Shown one piece after another: positions 34,401 through 40,877 of a DNA stretch of 42,065 nt (the stretch's first letter is position 1; the number at the start of each line of letters is the position of its first letter). The position numbers were made by a program, and so were the translations under genes. The DNA comes from Escherichia coli (GTDB taxonomy: Bacteria; Pseudomonadota; Gammaproteobacteria; Enterobacterales; Enterobacteriaceae): NCBI RefSeq assembly GCF_003334255.1, contig NZ_QOWU01000050.1; one strand, 5' to 3'. Below the pieces are notes generated by a model. The model searched no databases, was not told the DNA's origin, and saw only the letters and a program-made list of their open reading frames with translations.

Positions 34401-35954
34401 TTTAGCTATTCTGACTCGGCAGAAATGCTGAGCGGTAATAGCGATCTCAACGAAAAGCTGCGTGAACGTCTGGAACAGGCGGAAGCGGAGCGTACTCGCG
34501 CTCGTGAAGCGTTGCGTGGTCACGCAGCGCAGTTGAGTCAGTACAACCAGGTGCTGGCTTCGCTGAAAAGTTCTTACGACACCAAAAAAGAGCTACTCAA
34601 CGATCTGCAACGTGAATTGCAGGATATCGGCGTGCGCGCCGATAGCGGGGCAGAAGAGCGGGCGCGAATTCGCCGTGACGAGCTGCATGCGCAACTGAGT
34701 AATAACCGGTCCCGCCGCAACCAGCTGGAAAAAGCACTGACTTTCTGCGAAGCGGAGATGGACAATCTGACCCGCAAACTGCGCAAGCTGGAGCGGGATT
34801 ACTTTGAGATGCGCGAGCAGGTAGTGACCGCCAAAGCGGGCTGGTGTGCAGTGATGCGCATGGTGAAAGATAACGGCGTTGAACGGCGCTTACACCGTCG
34901 CGAGCTGGCTTATCTCTCCGCTGATGATTTGCGCTCTATGTCGGATAAGGCATTGGGTGCGCTGCGTCTGGCGGTGGCGGATAACGAACATCTGCGCGAC
35001 GTGCTGCGCATGTCGGAAGATCCAAAACGTCCGGAACGTAAAATTCAGTTCTTCGTGGCGGTTTATCAGCATCTGCGTGAACGTATTCGTCAGGATATTA
35101 TTCGTACCGATGATCCGGTGGAAGCCATCGAGCAGATGGAAATCGAACTTAGCCGACTGACCGAGGAGTTAACCTCCCGCGAACAGAAACTGGCGATCAG
35201 TTCCCGCAGCGTGGCGAACATCATTCGCAAAACCATTCAGCGCGAGCAGAACCGTATCCGTATGCTCAACCAGGGGTTGCAGAACGTATCGTTTGGTCAG
35301 GTGAACAGCGTACGTCTGAACGTGAACGTGCGTGAAACGCACGCCATGCTGCTGGATGTGCTCTCTGAACAGCACGAGCAGCATCAGGATCTGTTTAACA
35401 GCAACCGTCTGACCTTCTCGGAAGCGCTGGCGAAATTGTATCAGCGTCTTAATCCGCAGATTGATATGGGGCAGCGCACGCCGCAGACCATTGGCGAAGA
35501 ACTGCTGGATTACCGCAACTATCTGGAAATGGAAGTTGAGGTTAATCGTGGTTCCGATGGCTGGTTGCGCGCAGAGTCTGGTGCATTGTCGACCGGTGAG
35601 GCGATTGGTACCGGTATGTCGATTCTGGTGATGGTGGTACAAAGCTGGGAAGATGAATCTCGCCGCCTGCGCGGTAAAGATATCTCTCCTTGCCGCCTGC
35701 TGTTCCTCGATGAAGCAGCGCGACTGGATGCTCGTTCTATCGCCACGCTGTTTGAATTGTGTGAACGTTTGCAAATGCAGCTCATCATCGCAGCGCCGGA
35801 AAATATCAGCCCGGAGAAAGGCACCACCTATAAACTGGTGCGTAAAGTCTTCCAGAATACCGAACACGTTCACGTCGTCGGCCTGCGAGGATTTGCGCCG
35901 CAACTCCCTGAAACGCTTCCAGGAAGTGACGAAGCGCCTTCTCAGGCGAGTTAA
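31494..35954 (+). CDS. mukB: SMC-like condensin ATPase MukB
   Basis: 1486-aa ORF with N-terminal Walker [10 protein letters not shown], long coiled-coil arms and a C-terminal ATPase half; ATG shares one nucleotide with the mukE TAA. Confidence 0.97.
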
Positions 35955-35958
35955 AATT

Positions 35959-35988
35959 AAGGCGGCAGCAATGCCGCCTTTTCTTTTT
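35959..35988 (+). terminator. intrinsic terminator downstream of mukB
   Basis: aaggcggc-agcaat-gccgcctt hairpin followed by ttctttttcc, 5 nt after the mukB stop. Confidence 0.8.
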
Positions 35989-36214
35989 CCGAAAACTCCG
36001 TTTCTGCACTAAAAAAGTGGCACATTACGGCGCGCTTTTCTTTAAACTTCTTTACATTAGGTTATGTAAAAACGTATCGGCGTTTATATACTGAAGATAA
36101 GCCTGATGAGTAACAGGCTTGCTCGTCATACTTTCGTGAGTATTGGCGTTGTACAGGCAAGTCGTAAAATAACAGCCTGGCTATTCAGAGTATGATAAAA
36201 ACAGGGGGCAAGGG

Positions 36215-38062
36215 ATGTTGCTTAATATGATGTGTGGTCGTCGGCTGTCGGCAATCAGTTTGTGCCTGGCCGTAACATTCGCTCCACTGTTCAATGCGCA
36301 GGCCGATGAGCCTGAAGTAATCCCTGGCGACAGCCCGGTGGCTGTCAGTGAACAGGGCGAGGCACTGCCGCAGGCGCAAGCCACGGCAATATTGGCGGGG
36401 ATCCAGCCATTGCCTGAAGGTGCGGCAGAAAAAGCCCGCACGCAAATCGAATCTCAATTACCCGCAGGTTACAAGCCGGTTTATCTTAACCAGCTTCAAC
36501 TGTTGTATGCCGCACGCGATATGCAACCCATGTGGGAAAACCGTGATGCTGTTAAAGCCTTCCAGCAACAGCTGGCAGAGGTGGCGATTGCCGGTTTCCA
36601 GCCGCAGTTTAATAAATGGGTAGAGTTACTGACCGATCCTGGTGTTAACGGGATGGCACGCGACGTAGTGCTCTCTGATGCGATGATGGGCTATCTCCAT
36701 TTCATTGCAAATATTCCGGTCAAAGGCACTCGCTGGCTATATAGCAGTAAACCTTATGCACTTGCAACGCCGCCGCTCTCGGTGATTAACCAATGGCAGC
36801 TGGCGCTGGATAAAGGTCAATTGCCTACGTTTGTTGCAGGACTGGCACCGCAGCATCCGCAATATGCGGCGATGCATGAATCGTTACTGGCCTTACTCAG
36901 TGACACCAAACCGTGGCCCCAACTGACCGGCAAAGCAACGTTGCGCCCAGGGCAGTGGAGTAACGACGTACCGGCGTTGCGCGAAATATTGCAACGCACA
37001 GGCATGTTGGACGGGGGGCCGAAAATTACTCTACCTGGCGATGACACGCCAACTGACGCGGTAGTCAGCCCATCCGCTGTTACTGTTGAAACAGCAGAAA
37101 CTAAGCCGATGGACAAGCAAATGACGTCTCGTAGTAAACCTGCGCCTGCCGTTCGTGCCGCCTACGATAATGAACTGGTGGAAGCCGTTAAACGTTTTCA
37201 GGCATGGCAAGGATTGGGGGCAGATGGTGCTATTGGCCCGGCAACACGTGACTGGTTAAACGTAACGCCCGCCCAGCGTGCTGGCGTGTTGGCTCTCAAC
37301 ATCCAGCGATTGCGCTTGCTGCCAACAGAGCTTTCTACCGGGATCATGGTTAACATTCCGGCCTATTCGCTGGTCTACTATCAGAACGGCAATCAGGTGC
37401 TGGATTCGCGAGTCATTGTCGGTCGCCCCGATCGCAAAACGCCGATGATGAGCAGTGCCCTTAACAACGTAGTGGTAAACCCGCCGTGGAACGTACCTCC
37501 AACTCTGGCACGCAAAGATATTCTGCCAAAAGTGCGCAACGATCCGGGATATCTCGAAAGCCATGGCTATACGGTGATGCGCGGCTGGAACAGCAGAGAA
37601 GCGATTGACCCATGGCAGGTTGACTGGTCTACAATCACGGCCTCGAATTTACCGTTCCGCTTCCAGCAGGCTCCAGGCCCACGGAACTCGCTGGGGCGCT
37701 ATAAATTCAATATGCCGAGTTCAGAGGCCATTTATTTGCATGACACGCCGAACCACAATCTGTTCAAGCGTGATACACGCGCATTGAGCTCAGGCTGTGT
37801 ACGAGTGAATAAAGCTTCCGATCTGGCGAATATGCTGTTGCAGGATGCAGGCTGGAATGACAAACGTATTTCTGATGCGCTGAAGCAGGGTGATACACGT
37901 TACGTCAATATTCGGCAGTCGATTCCGGTGAATCTCTACTACCTGACGGCCTTTGTTGGTGCAGATGGTCGTACCCAGTATCGTACAGATATTTACAATT
38001 ATGATCTGCCTGCGCGATCCAGCTCGCAAATCGTATCGAAAGCGGAACAATTAATCAGGTAA
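36215..38062 (+). CDS. ldtD: L,D-transpeptidase LdtD (YcbB)
   Basis: 615-aa ORF with signal peptide, peptidoglycan-binding domain and YkuD catalytic motif HDTPNHNLF...SSGCVRV. Confidence 0.9.
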
Positions 38063-38242
38063 ATGAAGTAGTTCGGGGAAATCAGTTGTCGTAATAATTA
38101 GCATGATTGGGGGCGATTCTCTGCAGCCCCCGTCACTGCTGGGGTTGAGTCATCTTGACGTCTGCTTTACGGGCGGTTAAGGTGCCTCTTGTGCGCCAGA
38201 AGTGCATATAAACGATAACATTGACCTGTAGACTTGATTATC

Positions 38243-38791
38243 ATGGACAAATTCGACGCTAATCGCCGCAAATTGCTGGCGCTTGGTGGCGTTGCACTCG
38301 GTGCCGCCATCCTGCCGACCCCTGCGTTTGCAACACTCTCTACCCCACGCCCGCGCATTTTGACACTCAATAATCTTCATACCGGAGAGTCAATCAAAGC
38401 GGAGTTTTTCGATGGCAGAGGCTATATTCAGGAAGAATTGGCAAAACTTAACCATTTTTTCCGCGATTACCGCGCGAACAAAATAAAGTCCATCGACCCA
38501 GGATTATTCGACCAGTTGTATCGCCTGCAAGGGTTGTTAGGCACGCGCAAACCGGTGCAACTCATTTCCGGTTATCGTTCTATTGATACCAACAATGAAC
38601 TACGCGCCCGCAGCCGTGGAGTAGCGAAGAAAAGCTATCACACTAAAGGCCAGGCGATGGATTTCCATATTGAAGGTATCGCGTTAAGCAATATTCGCAA
38701 AGCCGCGTTATCTATGCGCGCAGGTGGTGTAGGATATTACCCACGTAGTAACTTTGTGCATATTGATACCGGGCCAGCACGGCACTGGTAG
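38243..38791 (+). CDS. mepK: murein L,D-endopeptidase MepK (YcbK), Tat-exported
   Basis: 182-aa ORF starting MDKFDANRRKLLALGGVALGAAILPTPAFA (twin-arginine signal), peptidase M15-like domain. Confidence 0.85.
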   Translation: MDKFDANRRKLLALGGVALGAAILPTPAFATLSTPRPRILTLNNLHTGESIKAEFFDGRGYIQEELAKLNHFFRDYRANKIKSIDPGLFDQLYRLQGLLGTRKPVQLISGYRSIDTNNELRARSRGVAKKSYHTKGQAMDFHIEGIALSNIRKAALSMRAGGVGYYPRSNFVHIDTGPARHW

Positions 38792-38817
38792 TAATTGCTT
38801 AACGAAACAGGGGCAGT

Positions 38818-39465
38818 ATGAACTATCGTATTATTCCGGTCACCGCATTCTCCCAGAACTGTTCATTAATCTGGTGTGAACAAACCCGTCAGGCCGCACT
38901 GGTCGATCCTGGCGGCGATGCGGAAAAAATCAAACAGGAAGTTGATGACAGCGGCCTGACACTGATGCAGATCCTGCTGACGCATGGTCATCTGGACCAC
39001 GTTGGCGCAGCGGCGGAACTGGCGCAACATTACGGCGTGCCGGTTTTCGGCCCGGAAAAAGAAGATGAGTTCTGGCTGCAAGGCTTGCCTGCGCAAAGTC
39101 GTATGTTTGGTCTGGAAGAGTGCCAGCCGCTGACGCCAGATCGTTGGCTGAACGAAGGCGATACCATCAGCATAGGGAATGTGACTTTACAGGTGTTACA
39201 TTGCCCTGGGCATACGCCGGGTCATGTCGTGTTTTTTGATGATCGGGCAAAGCTGCTGATTTCTGGCGATGTTATTTTCAAAGGCGGAGTAGGGCGCAGT
39301 GACTTCCCGCGTGGCGATCATAATCAACTGATTTCTTCAATCAAAGATAAATTGCTGCCACTGGGGGATGACGTGATATTTATTCCGGGTCACGGACCAT
39401 TATCCACACTTGGTTATGAACGCCTGCATAATCCCTTCCTGCAAGACGAAATGCCCGTCTGGTAA
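38818..39465 (+). CDS. gloC: metallo-beta-lactamase-fold hydroxyacylglutathione hydrolase GloC (YcbL)
   Basis: 215-aa ORF with MBL motif [10 protein letters not shown]. Confidence 0.9.
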
Positions 39466-39478
39466 GGCACATAAAAAA

Positions 39479-39503
39479 GCCCGCTTTTAATGCGGGCCTG
39501 GAT
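39479..39503. terminator. hairpin gcccgc-ttttaat-gcgggc; with flanking A/T runs it reads as an intrinsic terminator on the minus strand (aspC transcript) and as a hairpin after gloC on the plus strand
   Basis: Perfect 6-bp GC stem; a tttttt tract follows the stem on the minus strand, an aaaaaa tract precedes it on the plus strand. Confidence 0.55.
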
Positions 39504-39528
39504 TTCTGGCAAAGTGCGCTTTGTTTAT

Positions 39529-39626
39529 GCCGGATGCGGCACGAGCGCCTTATCCGGCCTACAAAATCGTGCAAATTCAAAATATTGCAGGGGACGCGTA
39601 GGCCTGATAAGCGTAGCGCATCAGGC
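39529..39626. repeat. BIME: two inverted REP (repetitive extragenic palindromic) units
   Basis: gccggatgcggcacgagcgccttatccggcctac (39529-39562) and inverted copy gtaggcctgataagcgtagcgcatcaggc (39598-39626) match the REP consensus family as I recall it; located between convergent gloC and aspC. Confidence 0.75.
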
Positions 39627-39650
39627 AATGTTGCGTTTGTCATCAGTCTC

Positions 39651-39682
39651 AGCCCGCTTTTCAGCGGGCTTCATTGTTTTTA
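39651..39682. terminator. hairpin agcccgc-ttttca-gcgggct followed by tcattgttttt (plus-strand sense), immediately beyond the aspC stop
   Basis: Perfect 7-bp stem; T-tract on the plus strand only, so it may terminate read-through from gloC or stabilise the aspC 3' end. Confidence 0.45.
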
Positions 39683-39686
39683 ATGC

Positions 39687-40877
39687 TTACAGCACTGCCA
39701 CAATCGCTTCGCACAGCGGAGCCATGTTATCTGGTGTCATCCCGGCCACATTTACGCGACCAGAAGCAACCGCATATACGCCAAACTCTTCGCGCAGACG
39801 CAGCACTTGTTCTTTTGTCAGGCCACTGAAGGAGAACATGCCGTTCTGTTTGATGATAAAGCTGAAGTCGCGGTTTGCGCCTTTTTCCTGCAGCGTATTG
39901 ACGAACAACTGACGCATACGCTGAATACGCTGGCGCATATCAGTCAGCTCTTGTTCCCAAATCGCACGTAACGCATCGTTGCTCAGGATGGTGGCAACAA
40001 CAGAAGCGCCGTGTGCTGGTGGGTTAGAGTAGTTAGCGCGAATCGCCGCTTTCATTTGGCTGAATGCGCGATCAACGGTTTCACTGTCGGCAGCAACCAG
40101 AGTACAAGCGCCAACACGCTCGTTGTACAGGCCAAAGTTTTTAGAGTAGGAACTGGCAACAATCAGCTCTTTATGCATAGCCGCGAAAGCGCGCAGTCCT
40201 TCAGCATCTTCTTCCAGACCACGGGCAAAACCCTGGTAAGCGAAGTCAAACAGCGGTAACCAGCCTTTCTCAACGGAGAGTTGTGCCAGTGTTTGCCATT
40301 GTTCCAGCGTAGGGTCGATACCGGTTGGGTTATGGCAGCAGCCATGGAACAGCACTACGTCGCCAGCCTGAGCTTCATTCAGGCTGTTAATCAGTGCATC
40401 GAAGTCAAGAGTGTGATTTTCCGCATCATAATAAGCGTATTCACGAACTTCCAGACCTGCAGAGTTAAAGACGCTCTTATGGTTCGGCCAGCTTGGGTTG
40501 CTCACCCACACACGCTTAACGCTGGTATTTTTTGCCAAGAAATCGGCAGCCACGCGTAGTGCGCCAGTGCCCCCCGGAGTCTGTGCCGTGCGAGCACGTT
40601 TGTCATTGATCAGGGCGCTACCTTTACCAAACAGCAGTTCCTGAGTGCAGCGACCAAATTCAGGGATGCCGTCAATGCCGAGGTAATTTTTGGTGGTTTC
40701 ATTTTCGAGCAGATACTGTTCAGCCTTTTTCACGCTGGTCAGTACCGGGGTTTTGCCCGTCTCATCTTTATAGACACCAATCCCGAGGTTAATTTTGCCG
40801 GGACGTTCATCGGCACGAAACAGATCGGCCAGGCCCAGAATCGGGTCGGCAGGAGCGGCGGTAATGTTCTCAAACAT
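39687..40877 (-). CDS. aspC: aspartate aminotransferase
   Basis: 396-aa ORF ([46 protein letters not shown]...), PLP-lysine context [14 protein letters not shown]. Confidence 0.97.

Follow-up and report, generated by a model that had tools for sequence, protein, structure and literature searches.

Genes and proteins of the locus

Positions 36215-39465 of the window (the whole 42,065-nucleotide stretch of DNA that was analysed) are the E. coli core locus ldtD (ycbB), mepK (ycbK) and gloC (ycbL). The stretch is 100% identical to chromosomes of sequenced E. coli strains, and none of the 5,426 complete E. coli genomes lacks it; in 5,422, at least 80% of it is in one place. On identical DNA, the RefSeq order is mukB, ldtD, mepK, gloC, aspC and ompF, the last two on the minus strand. 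The open reading frames are at the places given by the original prediction, an earlier note on this DNA that had named the same three genes, and these names agree with the RefSeq annotation and with the family tests, which all three products passed. E. coli K-12 has the same genes (b0925, b0926 and b0927, respectively), equally ordered and spaced and with identical promoter sequences, and the strings published for the K-12 start sites agree with the window at every base. The window is from another E. coli strain and shows no material difference. The locus itself is already established knowledge, and finding it here adds nothing new. The features are listed in Table 1. The ldtD-mepK spacer has 180 nt, and an alternative in-frame TTG for mepK is present at 38234, ahead of the annotated ATG.

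Table 1. Features of the ldtD-mepK-gloC locus, with positions counted from the first letter of the window.
Feature	Position	Strand	Description
Candidate CpxR-like box GTAAAGAAGTTTAAA	36041..36055	-	1 mismatch to GTAAA-N5-GTAAA; -58..-44 of start 36099
ldtD start sites	36099 and 36208	+	980154 and 980263 in NC_000913.2 (Kim 2012, Cho 2014, supplementary tables)
ldtD (ycbB)	36215-38062	+	615 aa; Sec-exported periplasmic L,D-transpeptidase making 3-3 mDAP-mDAP cross-links
Two conserved blocks ATGAAGnAGTTC and TTGTCGTAA	38063..38094	+	Directly 3' of the ldtD stop codon
Candidate minor second promoter	38089-38093; 38100	+	-10-like TCGTA 38089-38093; minor start 38100; putative sigmaE assignment
Stem-loop H1	38098..38142	+	Contains GGGGGC/GCCCCC core; -22.3 kcal/mol, z = -2.7
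Stem-loop H2	38147..38188	+	Its two arms coincide with -35 and -10 of the mepK promoter; -19.2 kcal/mol, z = -2.7
Main mepK-gloC promoter	38155..38183	+	TTGACG 38155-38160, 17 nt, TAAGGT 38178-38183; start G38191; 52-nt leader
Stem-loop H3	38190..38208	+	GUGCGCC-AGAAG-UGCAU at the extreme 5' end of mepK mRNA
mepK (ycbK)	38243-38791	+	182 aa from annotated ATG; Tat-exported zinc M15-type peptidoglycan L,D-endopeptidase
mepK-gloC spacer	38792-38817	+	Exactly 26 nt; gloC ribosome-binding site CAGGGG (GGGG); no terminator
gloC (ycbL)	38818-39465	+	215 aa; cytoplasmic MBL-fold glyoxalase II isoenzyme, co-transcribed with mepK
Convergent gloC/aspC intergenic region	39477..39670	.	Terminator-like GC hairpins 39477-39499 and 39651-39670 flank REP-type repeats

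LdtD contains the Pfam domains Scaffold, PG_binding_1 and YkuD, the last with 7.7e-26 over residues 376-542. The YkuD catalytic cysteine that had been read from the sequence was found as Cys528 in SGCVR, in agreement with the family motif SxGC(I/V)R. The match to NCBIfam NF007891 is at the equivalog level (1199 bits, cut-off 425), and PDB 6NTW (YcbB) matches residues 31-615 with 1325 bits; the architecture, with scaffold, PG-binding and catalytic domains, is full-length. The formation of 3-3 mDAP-mDAP cross-links by LdtD has been reported in the literature.

MepK has the Peptidase_M15_2/DUF882 domain (PF05951, 3.3e-61) and an equivalog-level match to the NCBIfam model for MepK, NF053624 (275 bits, cut-off 185). 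The residues H133, D140 and H173, in an H-x6-D ... H pattern, are present and do not vary among 12 genera. From what is known of the M15 family, we take them to be the zinc ligands. A twin-arginine motif, NRRKLL, with R8 and R9 invariant in the 12 genera, precedes a hydrophobic stretch and AFA. The domain and this signal motif fit the Tat-exported M15-like peptidase originally described, and the literature lists MepK as a Tat substrate and 3-3 DAP endopeptidase, with a marked preference for cleaving the 3-3 bond and an inactive H133A variant. Sequence search found no solved MepK structure. A paper on a "ycbK minigene" was discarded as a source on mepK because it concerns an unrelated Bacillus subtilis ycbK gene.

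GloC contains the Lactamase_B domain (4.1e-42), with the MBL domain starting already from residue 9, and the metal motif HGHLDH at residues 56-61, which conforms to the HxHxDH of the MBL fold. No signal peptide was found in its sequence, so GloC is most simply placed in the cytoplasm, against the periplasmic role that the original prediction had considered. The Salmonella YcbL structure (glyoxalase II-2, PDB 2XF4) matches GloC with 3e-135 over 210 residues and shares its metal-binding motif; GloC is also the RefSeq name. The scores against the canonical GloB equivalogs were below the cut-offs for both TIGR03413 (112.8 vs 200.8 bits) and NF007597 (75 vs 421), and the protein is therefore the short GloC/YcbL isoenzyme represented by 2XF4 rather than GloB. 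According to the literature, YcbL differs from typical glyoxalase II by the absence of the C-terminal helical domain and by slower S-lactoylglutathione hydrolysis. In the convergent region 3' of gloC, Rfam ES036 was found at 39563-39605 (53 bits, gathering score 37.6). Earlier experiments have tested the ycbL terminator, and the aspC 3' end has been mapped at the hairpin 39651-39670.

Promoters and transcription units

Both published start sites of ldtD are bound by sigma70 and sigmaS, with ycbB alone as the transcription unit (Kim 2012, Cho 2014). The start at 36099 is 116 nt 5' of the ATG and is preceded by TATACT at 36087-36092. The gene has been described as Cpx-induced, and ycbB as lowered in an rpoS knockout. 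The CpxR-like box is the sole match near the locus and, judged by its sequence, only a candidate site for ldtD induction; window-wide, 4 matches were found and 2.2 were expected, which is not above chance.

In Enterobacteriaceae, the TTGAC of the mepK promoter is invariant in 48 of 48 sequences, and the -10 element occurs only as TAAGGT, TATGGT or TAATGT. The invariant TTGACG-17-TAAGGT led to the prediction of a start at 38190±1 before the published one, 982246 (=38191), was found. This start has 80 reads in Kim 2012 and 367 reads in Cho 2014, where it is bound by sigma70 and sigmaS and assigned to the transcription unit ycbK;ycbL. The 26 bp originally counted between mepK and gloC are exact, and this gap, the lack of an intervening terminator and the published unit answer in the affirmative whether the two genes share a promoter.

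Expression of ycbK and ycbL is raised in an rpoS knockout. Additionally, ycbK-ycbL are listed as a sigmaE-induced unit (9.7 and 6.6 fold) in array studies. Scans of the ldtD-mepK spacer for GGAACTT-N15-17-TCnnA gave no match, and because no convincing sigmaE promoter was located, sigmaE control of mepK-gloC is suggested by the array data and a weak "E" motif flag at a minor start site. GGAACTC-N17-TCAAT at 37683-37711, inside ldtD, was considered as a sigmaE promoter and rejected; it needs a CGG codon that is unique to the window sequence among 76, and its conservation is no better than codon usage explains.

Stem-loops and conserved elements of the ldtD-mepK spacer

The two blocks directly after the ldtD stop codon (38063..38094) have at least 90% conservation at T2, G3, A5, G6, T10, C12, G26, T27, C28 and A31 of alignment A2. 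A small ORF after the stop codon (ATG AAG TAG) was rejected as a conserved peptide, the ATG being common and the frames varying in length and sequence. No known RNA family was matched in the spacer (Rfam, E <= 1).

The GC hairpin GGGGGC-N11-GCCCCC of the original prediction is real and does lack a T-tract; however, it is located at 38109-38131 and not at 38113-38135, a displacement of 4 nt. Its arms, at 38109-38114 and 38126-38131, are followed by GTCACTGC. The larger stem-loop H1 containing it was equalled in folding by 1 of 200 shuffles, and a hairpin folds at this position in every genus. Compensatory changes keep the stem across 79 loci of Enterobacteriaceae; in the inner stem, 87% of the cells are paired, and 7 of 7 pairs have changed on both sides. 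The covariation of the model with H1 and H2 was 0.277, above all 500 shuffles (0.151±0.007) and above all slid controls (at most 0.122), and H1 alone, on a MAFFT alignment not fitted to the structure, gave 0.311 vs 0.171±0.014. In the plain MAFFT alignment the stems are out of register and RNAalifold did not detect H1; folding of each sequence by itself, a named structure and a covariance model were used in its place.

As in intrinsic (Rho-independent) terminators, including the bidirectional type with A-tract, stem and T-tract, H1 has a GC-rich stem directly 3' of the stop codon. Ten of 48 genera have a T-tract after H1, with 5 or more T within 8 nt, that pairs with an A-run further upstream. 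Unlike such terminators, H1 of E. coli and Salmonella has the T-tract replaced while the pairing is kept through matched changes; in E. coli the stem is followed by GUCACUGC, where 2 of 8 positions are U in place of a direct U-tract, and a consensus terminator scan had no match there. In the parts of the published 3'-end tables that were covered, the nearest RNA 3' end listed is at 38194, 52 nt past the foot of the H1 stem (38142) and beyond the mepK promoter, and none is listed at H1 itself (Adams 2021), from which it follows that some ldtD transcription passes H1. The partial terminator or processing site originally suggested is thus plausible in that relatives bear a T-tract at this place, although no E. 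coli 3' end among those listed coincides with it. H1 is probably a 3' stem-loop, or leaky terminator-insulator, of ldtD. It would most likely mark where ldtD mRNA ends, protect that end and give mepK partial insulation from read-through, acting as an apparently real intrinsic terminator in the genera with the T-tract and as a leaky one in E. coli.

Alternatively, H1 could be the 5'-terminal stabilising stem-loop of a sigmaE-induced mepK-gloC transcript from 38100, and not a 3' element of ldtD. Cho 2014 gives a start at 982155 (=38100), at the foot of H1, with the motif "NE", in which the "E" motif is flagged. TCGTA is placed 7 nt upstream, and its T, C and last A are at least 90% conserved and the middle two less, which fits a TCnnA -10. 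The 143-nt leader from this start folds at z = -2.9, and the listing of ycbK-ycbL as sigmaE-induced in array studies also points in this direction. However, the start has only 15 reads and no matching sigma-factor binding, sigmaE included, is recorded there; TGAAGTA, in the -35 region, does not contain the AAC core that the sigmaE consensus has there, the spacer scans for this consensus had no match, and the T-tract with upstream A-tract in many genera resembles a terminator. This role of H1 is considered unlikely.

In H2, covariation is seen in the outer pairs, the core is invariant and the inner part is badly preserved; the published RNA 3' end 983026 (=38194; Adams 2021) is 6 nt 3' of it. 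In H3, 85% of the cells are paired, in a near-invariant sequence whose pairing covariation therefore cannot test. The fold of the whole 180-nt spacer has z = -4.4, with 0 of 200 shuffles as good. GTTGTCG, just after the ldtD stop codon, is complementary to CGATAAC in the mepK leader, with matched variants in other genera (GTGGTCG/CGACCAC and GCGGTCG/CGATCGT). This long-range pairing is statistically weak, with a mean longest helix of 6.8 nt vs 5.9 nt in shuffled sequences and a duplex z of about -1. The pairing also overlaps a candidate promoter element.

The original prediction had taken the tight same-strand arrangement as a sign of coordinated control. This holds for mepK and gloC, with their short gap and one published unit, but not for ldtD and mepK, which are separated by 180 nt, a conserved stem-loop and a mapped promoter. 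A stronger form of the same idea would make ldtD, mepK and gloC in effect one coordinately controlled operon, where the T-less hairpin sets the maker:breaker ratio as a partial terminator or processing site. The shared strand, the missing T-tract in E. coli and the unusually good folding of the spacer are compatible with it, as are the 3' end at 38194, which is beyond H1 and the mepK promoter and implies ldtD read-through past H1, the GTTGTCG/CGATAAC complementarity, whose arms coexist only in read-through RNA, and the 35-nt ldtD-mepK gap in one distant lineage (L083). A single operon would have a shared transcript and no internal promoter; what was found instead is a strong, conserved and experimentally mapped mepK promoter (38155-38183) and start (38191), and the published units are separate, ycbB alone and ycbK;ycbL. 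The long-range pairing is weak and shares sequence with a candidate promoter element. Furthermore, the units respond in opposite ways to rpoS deletion and are assigned to different stress regulons, and such an operon is quite unlikely. Of the two observations named beforehand as speaking against the original prediction, independent and differently regulated promoters were indeed found, whereas the other, an absence of genetic interaction between ldtD and mepK, was not, as described below.

The locus is very probably a known envelope locus of two neighbouring, separately promoted transcription units, ldtD and mepK-gloC. In this arrangement, ldtD is transcribed from its own starts at 36099 and 36208, and mepK and gloC are transcribed jointly from the invariant sigma70/sigmaS-type promoter, both as published and as confirmed by conservation, with the mepK-gloC unit reportedly sigmaE-induced in addition.

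A further proposal, improbable at present, is that the spacer is a conserved regulatory module coupling ldtD and mepK after transcription initiation. Its parts could be the covarying H1, the promoter within the inverted repeat H2, the leader stem-loop H3, the complementarity of ldtD stop and mepK leader, and a premature RNA 3' end 46 nt into mepK. Either folding of the ldtD read-through RNA might hide or process the mepK start region, or transcription arriving from ldtD might interfere with the mepK promoter. If true, either route would tune the breaker:maker ratio as Cpx or sigmaS raise ldtD.

LdtD and MepK as a conserved pair

Cells deleted for mepK die when ycbB is expressed; MepK rescues them, the H133A variant of MepK does not, and MepM together with MepK suffices when YcbB is the sole transpeptidase. 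The original prediction was right on the gene identities and on the side-by-side maker and breaker of 3-3 cross-links, and the ldtD-mepK genetic interaction it had asked about is already in the literature, with catalytic MepK required. The functional link between LdtD and MepK is thus published and not new. According to published work, LdtD forms 3-3 cross-links, MepK cleaves them, which allows the sacculus to keep expanding, and cells with raised LdtD depend on MepK.

The common logic with the PBPs and MepS, MepM and MepH, which act on 4-3 cross-links, is that cleavage makes space for inserting new material. The LdtD/MepK pair differs from these in that the hydrolase reportedly has a marked preference for the 3-3 bond and its gene is linked to that of the matching transpeptidase, a linkage that recurs beyond Enterobacteriaceae. 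The 3-3 cross-linking by LdtD matters for PBP bypass and resistance to most beta-lactams in E. coli and also props the envelope upon failed outer-membrane assembly, and MepK is the hydrolase enabling growth with such cross-links. The additions made here to published work are modest, namely the deep conservation of the gene pair, the covarying spacer stem-loop and the promoter embedded in an inverted repeat; these might inform a limited study of what sets the LdtD:MepK ratio.

All Enterobacteriaceae loci with sufficient flanking sequence preserve the order mukB-ldtD-mepK-gloC-aspC. The contig scan listed Enterobacteriaceae only (best 80 of at least 591), and synteny in distant relatives was sampled by 11 single look-ups. 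In 6 of these 11 MepK relatives (40-66% identity), an LdtD-type gene is directly upstream on the same strand amid different neighbours, and the other 5 have no LdtD gene nearby. MepK-domain proteins of 500-730 aa were rejected as MepK-LdtD fusions; they carry Ala/Pro-rich tails, with neither LdtD nor any other domain.

That ldtD and mepK are neighbours through inherited gene order, without functional meaning, is very unlikely: synteny in Enterobacteriaceae extends over the entire mukB...ompF block, with the unrelated mukB and aspC included, and the 5 relatives without a neighbouring ldtD would agree with it, but elsewhere the pair persists amid entirely different neighbours (for example Peptidase_M75/DUF1513 in the distant relative L084 and spermine synthase in another, L090), and the two genes have a direct interaction of the synthetic-lethal type and a common substrate. 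The linkage may rather reflect selection for inheriting a synthase together with its matching hydrolase and at balanced dosage, and obligatory co-transcription is presumably not what maintains it. In L083, with its 35-nt ldtD-mepK gap, mepK also overlaps gloC, and this arrangement looks like a true operon.

The ldtD-mepK-gloC locus and its proteins

The three same-strand genes ldtD (ycbB), mepK (ycbK) and gloC (ycbL) are flanked by mukB and the convergent aspC in the ORF list and sequence, and their identities and order, as originally predicted, were confirmed by the ORFs, family matches and RefSeq annotation (mukB, ldtD, mepK, gloC, aspC(-), ompF(-)). The stretch 35900-39700 was found by megablast in 5,426/5,426 complete E. 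coli genomes, with at least 80% of it at one place in 5,422 of the 5,426 and several chromosomes 100% identical; with this distribution and the RefSeq annotation, it is a core, well-annotated E. coli locus. The order mukB-ldtD-mepK-gloC-aspC is maintained in every locus having enough flank among the 80 Enterobacteriaceae loci compared (the best 80 of at least 591). Relative to the window, LdtD diverges much faster in these loci (L003-L081) than its neighbours, with 55-94% identity vs 83-98% for MepK and 74-96% for GloC.

Features of the ldtD-mepK-gloC region (positions in the window)
Feature	Position	Strand	Description
CpxR-like box	-58..-44 of start 36099		candidate, one mismatch
ldtD	36215-38062	+	ORF, 615 aa
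sigmaE-like match	37683-37711		inside ldtD
ATG AAG TAG	38063-38071		immediately after ldtD stop (TAA)
Post-stop pairing arm	38084-38092		GTTGTCGT
H1	38098-38142		stem-loop, -22.3 kcal/mol, z = -2.7
H1 hairpin core	38109-38131		GGGGGC-N11-GCCCCC
H2	38147-38188		stem-loop
TTGAC	38155-38159		mepK promoter, -35 region
TAAGGT	38178-38183		mepK promoter, -10 region
5' stem-loop	38190-38208		GUGCGCC-AGAAG-UGCAU
Leader pairing arm	38212-38221		ACGATAAC
mepK	38243-38791	+	ORF, 182 aa counted from RefSeq ATG
gloC	38818-39465	+	ORF, 215 aa
gloC-aspC spacer	39477-39670		REP-type repeats
ES036 (CssrF)	39563-39605		Rfam match, 53 bits

LdtD scores 1199 bits against the NCBIfam equivalog NF007891 (cut-off 425), and has the Pfam architecture Scaffold, PG_binding_1 and YkuD with Cys528 within SGCVR; its alignment to crystallised YcbB (6NTW) starts at residue 31, consistent with a cleaved Sec signal peptide. 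MepK scores 275 bits against its equivalog NF053624 (cut-off 185) and also matches Peptidase_M15_2/DUF882; its twin-arginine R8-R9 and H133, D140 and H173 are unchanged across a 12-genus alignment, and a search by sequence found no solved structure. Proteins of 500-730 aa with the MepK domain (P0148, P0158, P0165, P0173 and ~30 more) have long Ala/Pro-rich low-complexity C-terminal tails without a recognisable domain, ruling them out as LdtD fusions. GloC has the MBL fold, with HGHLDH at residue 56, and matches Salmonella YcbL (2XF4) at 3e-135; its score falls short of the canonical GloB cut-off, in agreement with the shorter, slower 'GLXII-2' isoenzyme described for this type. Judged by its sequence, which has no N-terminal signal, GloC is cytoplasmic, and the periplasmic role raised by the original prediction is not borne out.

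The proposed relation of a maker (LdtD) and a breaker (MepK) of 3-3 cross-links, with a genetic interaction between the two, is right but already established. Expression of ycbB without mepK is lethal (published work that also cites Chodisetti and Reddy 2019), survival under ycbB expression needs catalytically active MepK, and Tat substrate lists include MepK as a 3-3 DAP endopeptidase. With YcbB as the sole transpeptidase, the minimal endopeptidase set is MepM plus MepK. The findings at this locus are nothing new in kind.

Transcription units and their regulation

The 26 nt between mepK and gloC hold a ribosome-binding site but lack a terminator; ldtD and mepK are 180 nt apart. The tight arrangement and the co-ordinated control read from it hold for mepK-gloC but not for ldtD-mepK, whose members have their own promoters and different regulation; the earlier interpretation as a whole is partly supported. 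The ldtD-mepK spacer measures 167-188 nt in 69/77 Enterobacteriaceae loci; in 8/77 (e.g. L016, L023, L072-L076, L081) it is larger, 231-394 nt vs ~180.

TTGAC is unchanged in all 48 distinct spacers aligned, and TAAGGT, 17 nt beyond, has TATGGT and TAATGT as its only variants, a pattern of variation typical of a -10 hexamer. From this conserved promoter the mepK start was predicted at ~38190 before the published position was found, G38191 (982246 in NC_000913.2), which gives a 52-nt leader and has 80 reads (Kim 2012) and 367 reads (Cho 2014), bound sigma70 and sigmaS, and the transcription unit ycbK;ycbL. Start sites for ldtD, a transcription unit alone, are at 36099 and 36208. In the same mapping study (Cho 2014), rpoS deletion lowered ycbB and raised ycbK/ycbL, and ycbK-ycbL is among the sigmaE-induced units listed by a study of envelope stress (9.7 and 6.6 fold). 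Because of these separate start sites, the opposite rpoS responses and the sigmaE listing, the ldtD and mepK-gloC halves are independently promoted and differently regulated. According to published work, each half responds to an envelope-stress pathway; ldtD is Cpx-induced, and much of the damage from Cpx over-activation is due to LdtD overproduction.

Sequence scans found no sigmaE consensus in the ldtD-mepK spacer. A minor mapped start at 38100, 7 nt downstream of a conserved TCGTA, is flagged with an 'E' motif, has no recorded sigmaE binding and is a candidate sigmaE start only. The best sigmaE-like match (GGAACTC-N17-TCAAT, ~530 nt before mepK) is not conserved and is probably due to chance, because its GG relies on a CGG codon present in the window sequence alone among 76 relatives. 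CpxR-like boxes are not above chance in number across the window.

Structure of the ldtD-mepK spacer

The GC hairpin noticed originally exists and lacks a T-tract, being followed by GTCACTGC, and lies 4 nt from where it was first placed. H1, the longer stem-loop around it, is a real, conserved structure. A 13-20 bp hairpin folds at its place in every genus, with differing stem sequences; in a plain MAFFT alignment 14/16 of the E. coli pairs are changed on both sides, and covariation is 0.311, against 0.171±0.014 for shuffles (none of 500 as high) and no more than 0.183 for slid controls. The covariance-model alignment is biased to the model's structure, having been fitted to it; there the inner stem of H1 is paired in 87% of cells, with changes on both sides at 7/7 pairs (e.g. 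CG n=38, GC n=29 at one pair), and H1 together with H2, the next stem-loop, scores 0.277 (shuffles 0.151±0.007, slid controls at most 0.122). Of 85 sources searched with this model, 79 (the window and 78 Enterobacteriaceae loci) have a single copy, located in the spacer; there is no further copy anywhere else in the 879 kb and none in the four distant loci.

At least five T lie within 8 nt after the H1 stem in 10/48 sequences, where they pair with an upstream A-run, and H1 looks like a genuine intrinsic terminator in some genera. In E. coli and Salmonella the T's are lost but the pairing is retained, so it is the structure that selection maintains. The published Term-seq ends (Adams 2021), for the part of the tables covered here, list no E. 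coli RNA 3' end at H1, whose putative role on ldtD is most likely that of a leaky 3' stem-loop or insulator.

H2 forms by pairing of the mepK promoter's -35 and -10 regions, one in each arm; there is covariation in the outer pairs, no variation in the core and poor conservation of the inner part. The TATGGT and TAATGT variants disrupt the helix yet better match a -10 element, an argument for the core owing its conservation to the promoter. The same part of the Term-seq tables places an E. coli 3' end at 38194, 6 nt past H2, and another ~46 nt into the mepK frame (38289-38293, +46 to +50 from ATG), given at neighbouring 983121 and 983125 in two places; the latter has a score of 2.0 (p = 6e-5) in the bicyclomycin (Rho) table and 1.8, 'No', in another, and may reflect premature termination within the signal-peptide-coding part of mepK.

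The entire spacer folds at z = -4.4, its outer helices joining the region after the ldtD stop to the mepK leader. The two complementary arms of this pairing have matched variants in several other genera (GTGGTCG/CGACCAC, GCGGTCG/CGATCGT, AGTGTCG/CGACACT) and would co-occur only in ldtD read-through RNA; with weak statistics, the possible pairing is a lead and not a result. This spacer, conserved and highly structured, might couple ldtD to mepK-gloC at a step after transcription start.

At the very 5' end of the main mepK transcript is a stem-loop that hardly varies and is therefore uninformative for covariation; it looks like a 5'-terminal stabiliser. No Shine-Dalgarno sequence is recognisable ahead of the mepK ATG (38215-38245, …CCTGTAGACTTGATTATCATG), despite the strong conservation of this stretch. 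Nine nt upstream of the ATG, at 38234, is an in-frame TTG, and mepK translation may start weakly or in an unusual way. After the ldtD stop, most genera retain ATG and AAG, but the frame then runs from 2 to >12 codons with no conserved peptide across genera; a mini-gene is less likely here than a motif conserved at the nucleotide level.

Gene linkage in distant relatives and the downstream spacer

An LdtD-type gene lies directly upstream on the same strand in 6/11 distant MepK representatives (40-66% identity), one of the six being a fragment, and none was found near mepK in the other 5/11; GloC is directly downstream in 3/11 and within 3 kb in one further. Because the pair recurs among unrelated neighbours in several cases (Peptidase_M75/DUF1513, spermine synthase, others), its linkage is both older and more robust than the synteny around it in this small, not phylogenetically controlled sample. 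This favours a functional explanation for why the two genes are neighbours, even though they are not as a rule co-transcribed in E. coli. In one distant, mukB-linked locus (L083, 2046-5205), ldtD and mepK are 35 nt apart and mepK and gloC overlap by 7 nt; here, in contrast to E. coli, the arrangement resembles a true operon of all three genes.

The convergent gloC-aspC spacer has a GC hairpin at either end of its repeats, and the CssrF match exceeds the gathering score. In the portion of the published 3' ends covered here, the gloC and aspC transcripts each extend antisense into the other gene.
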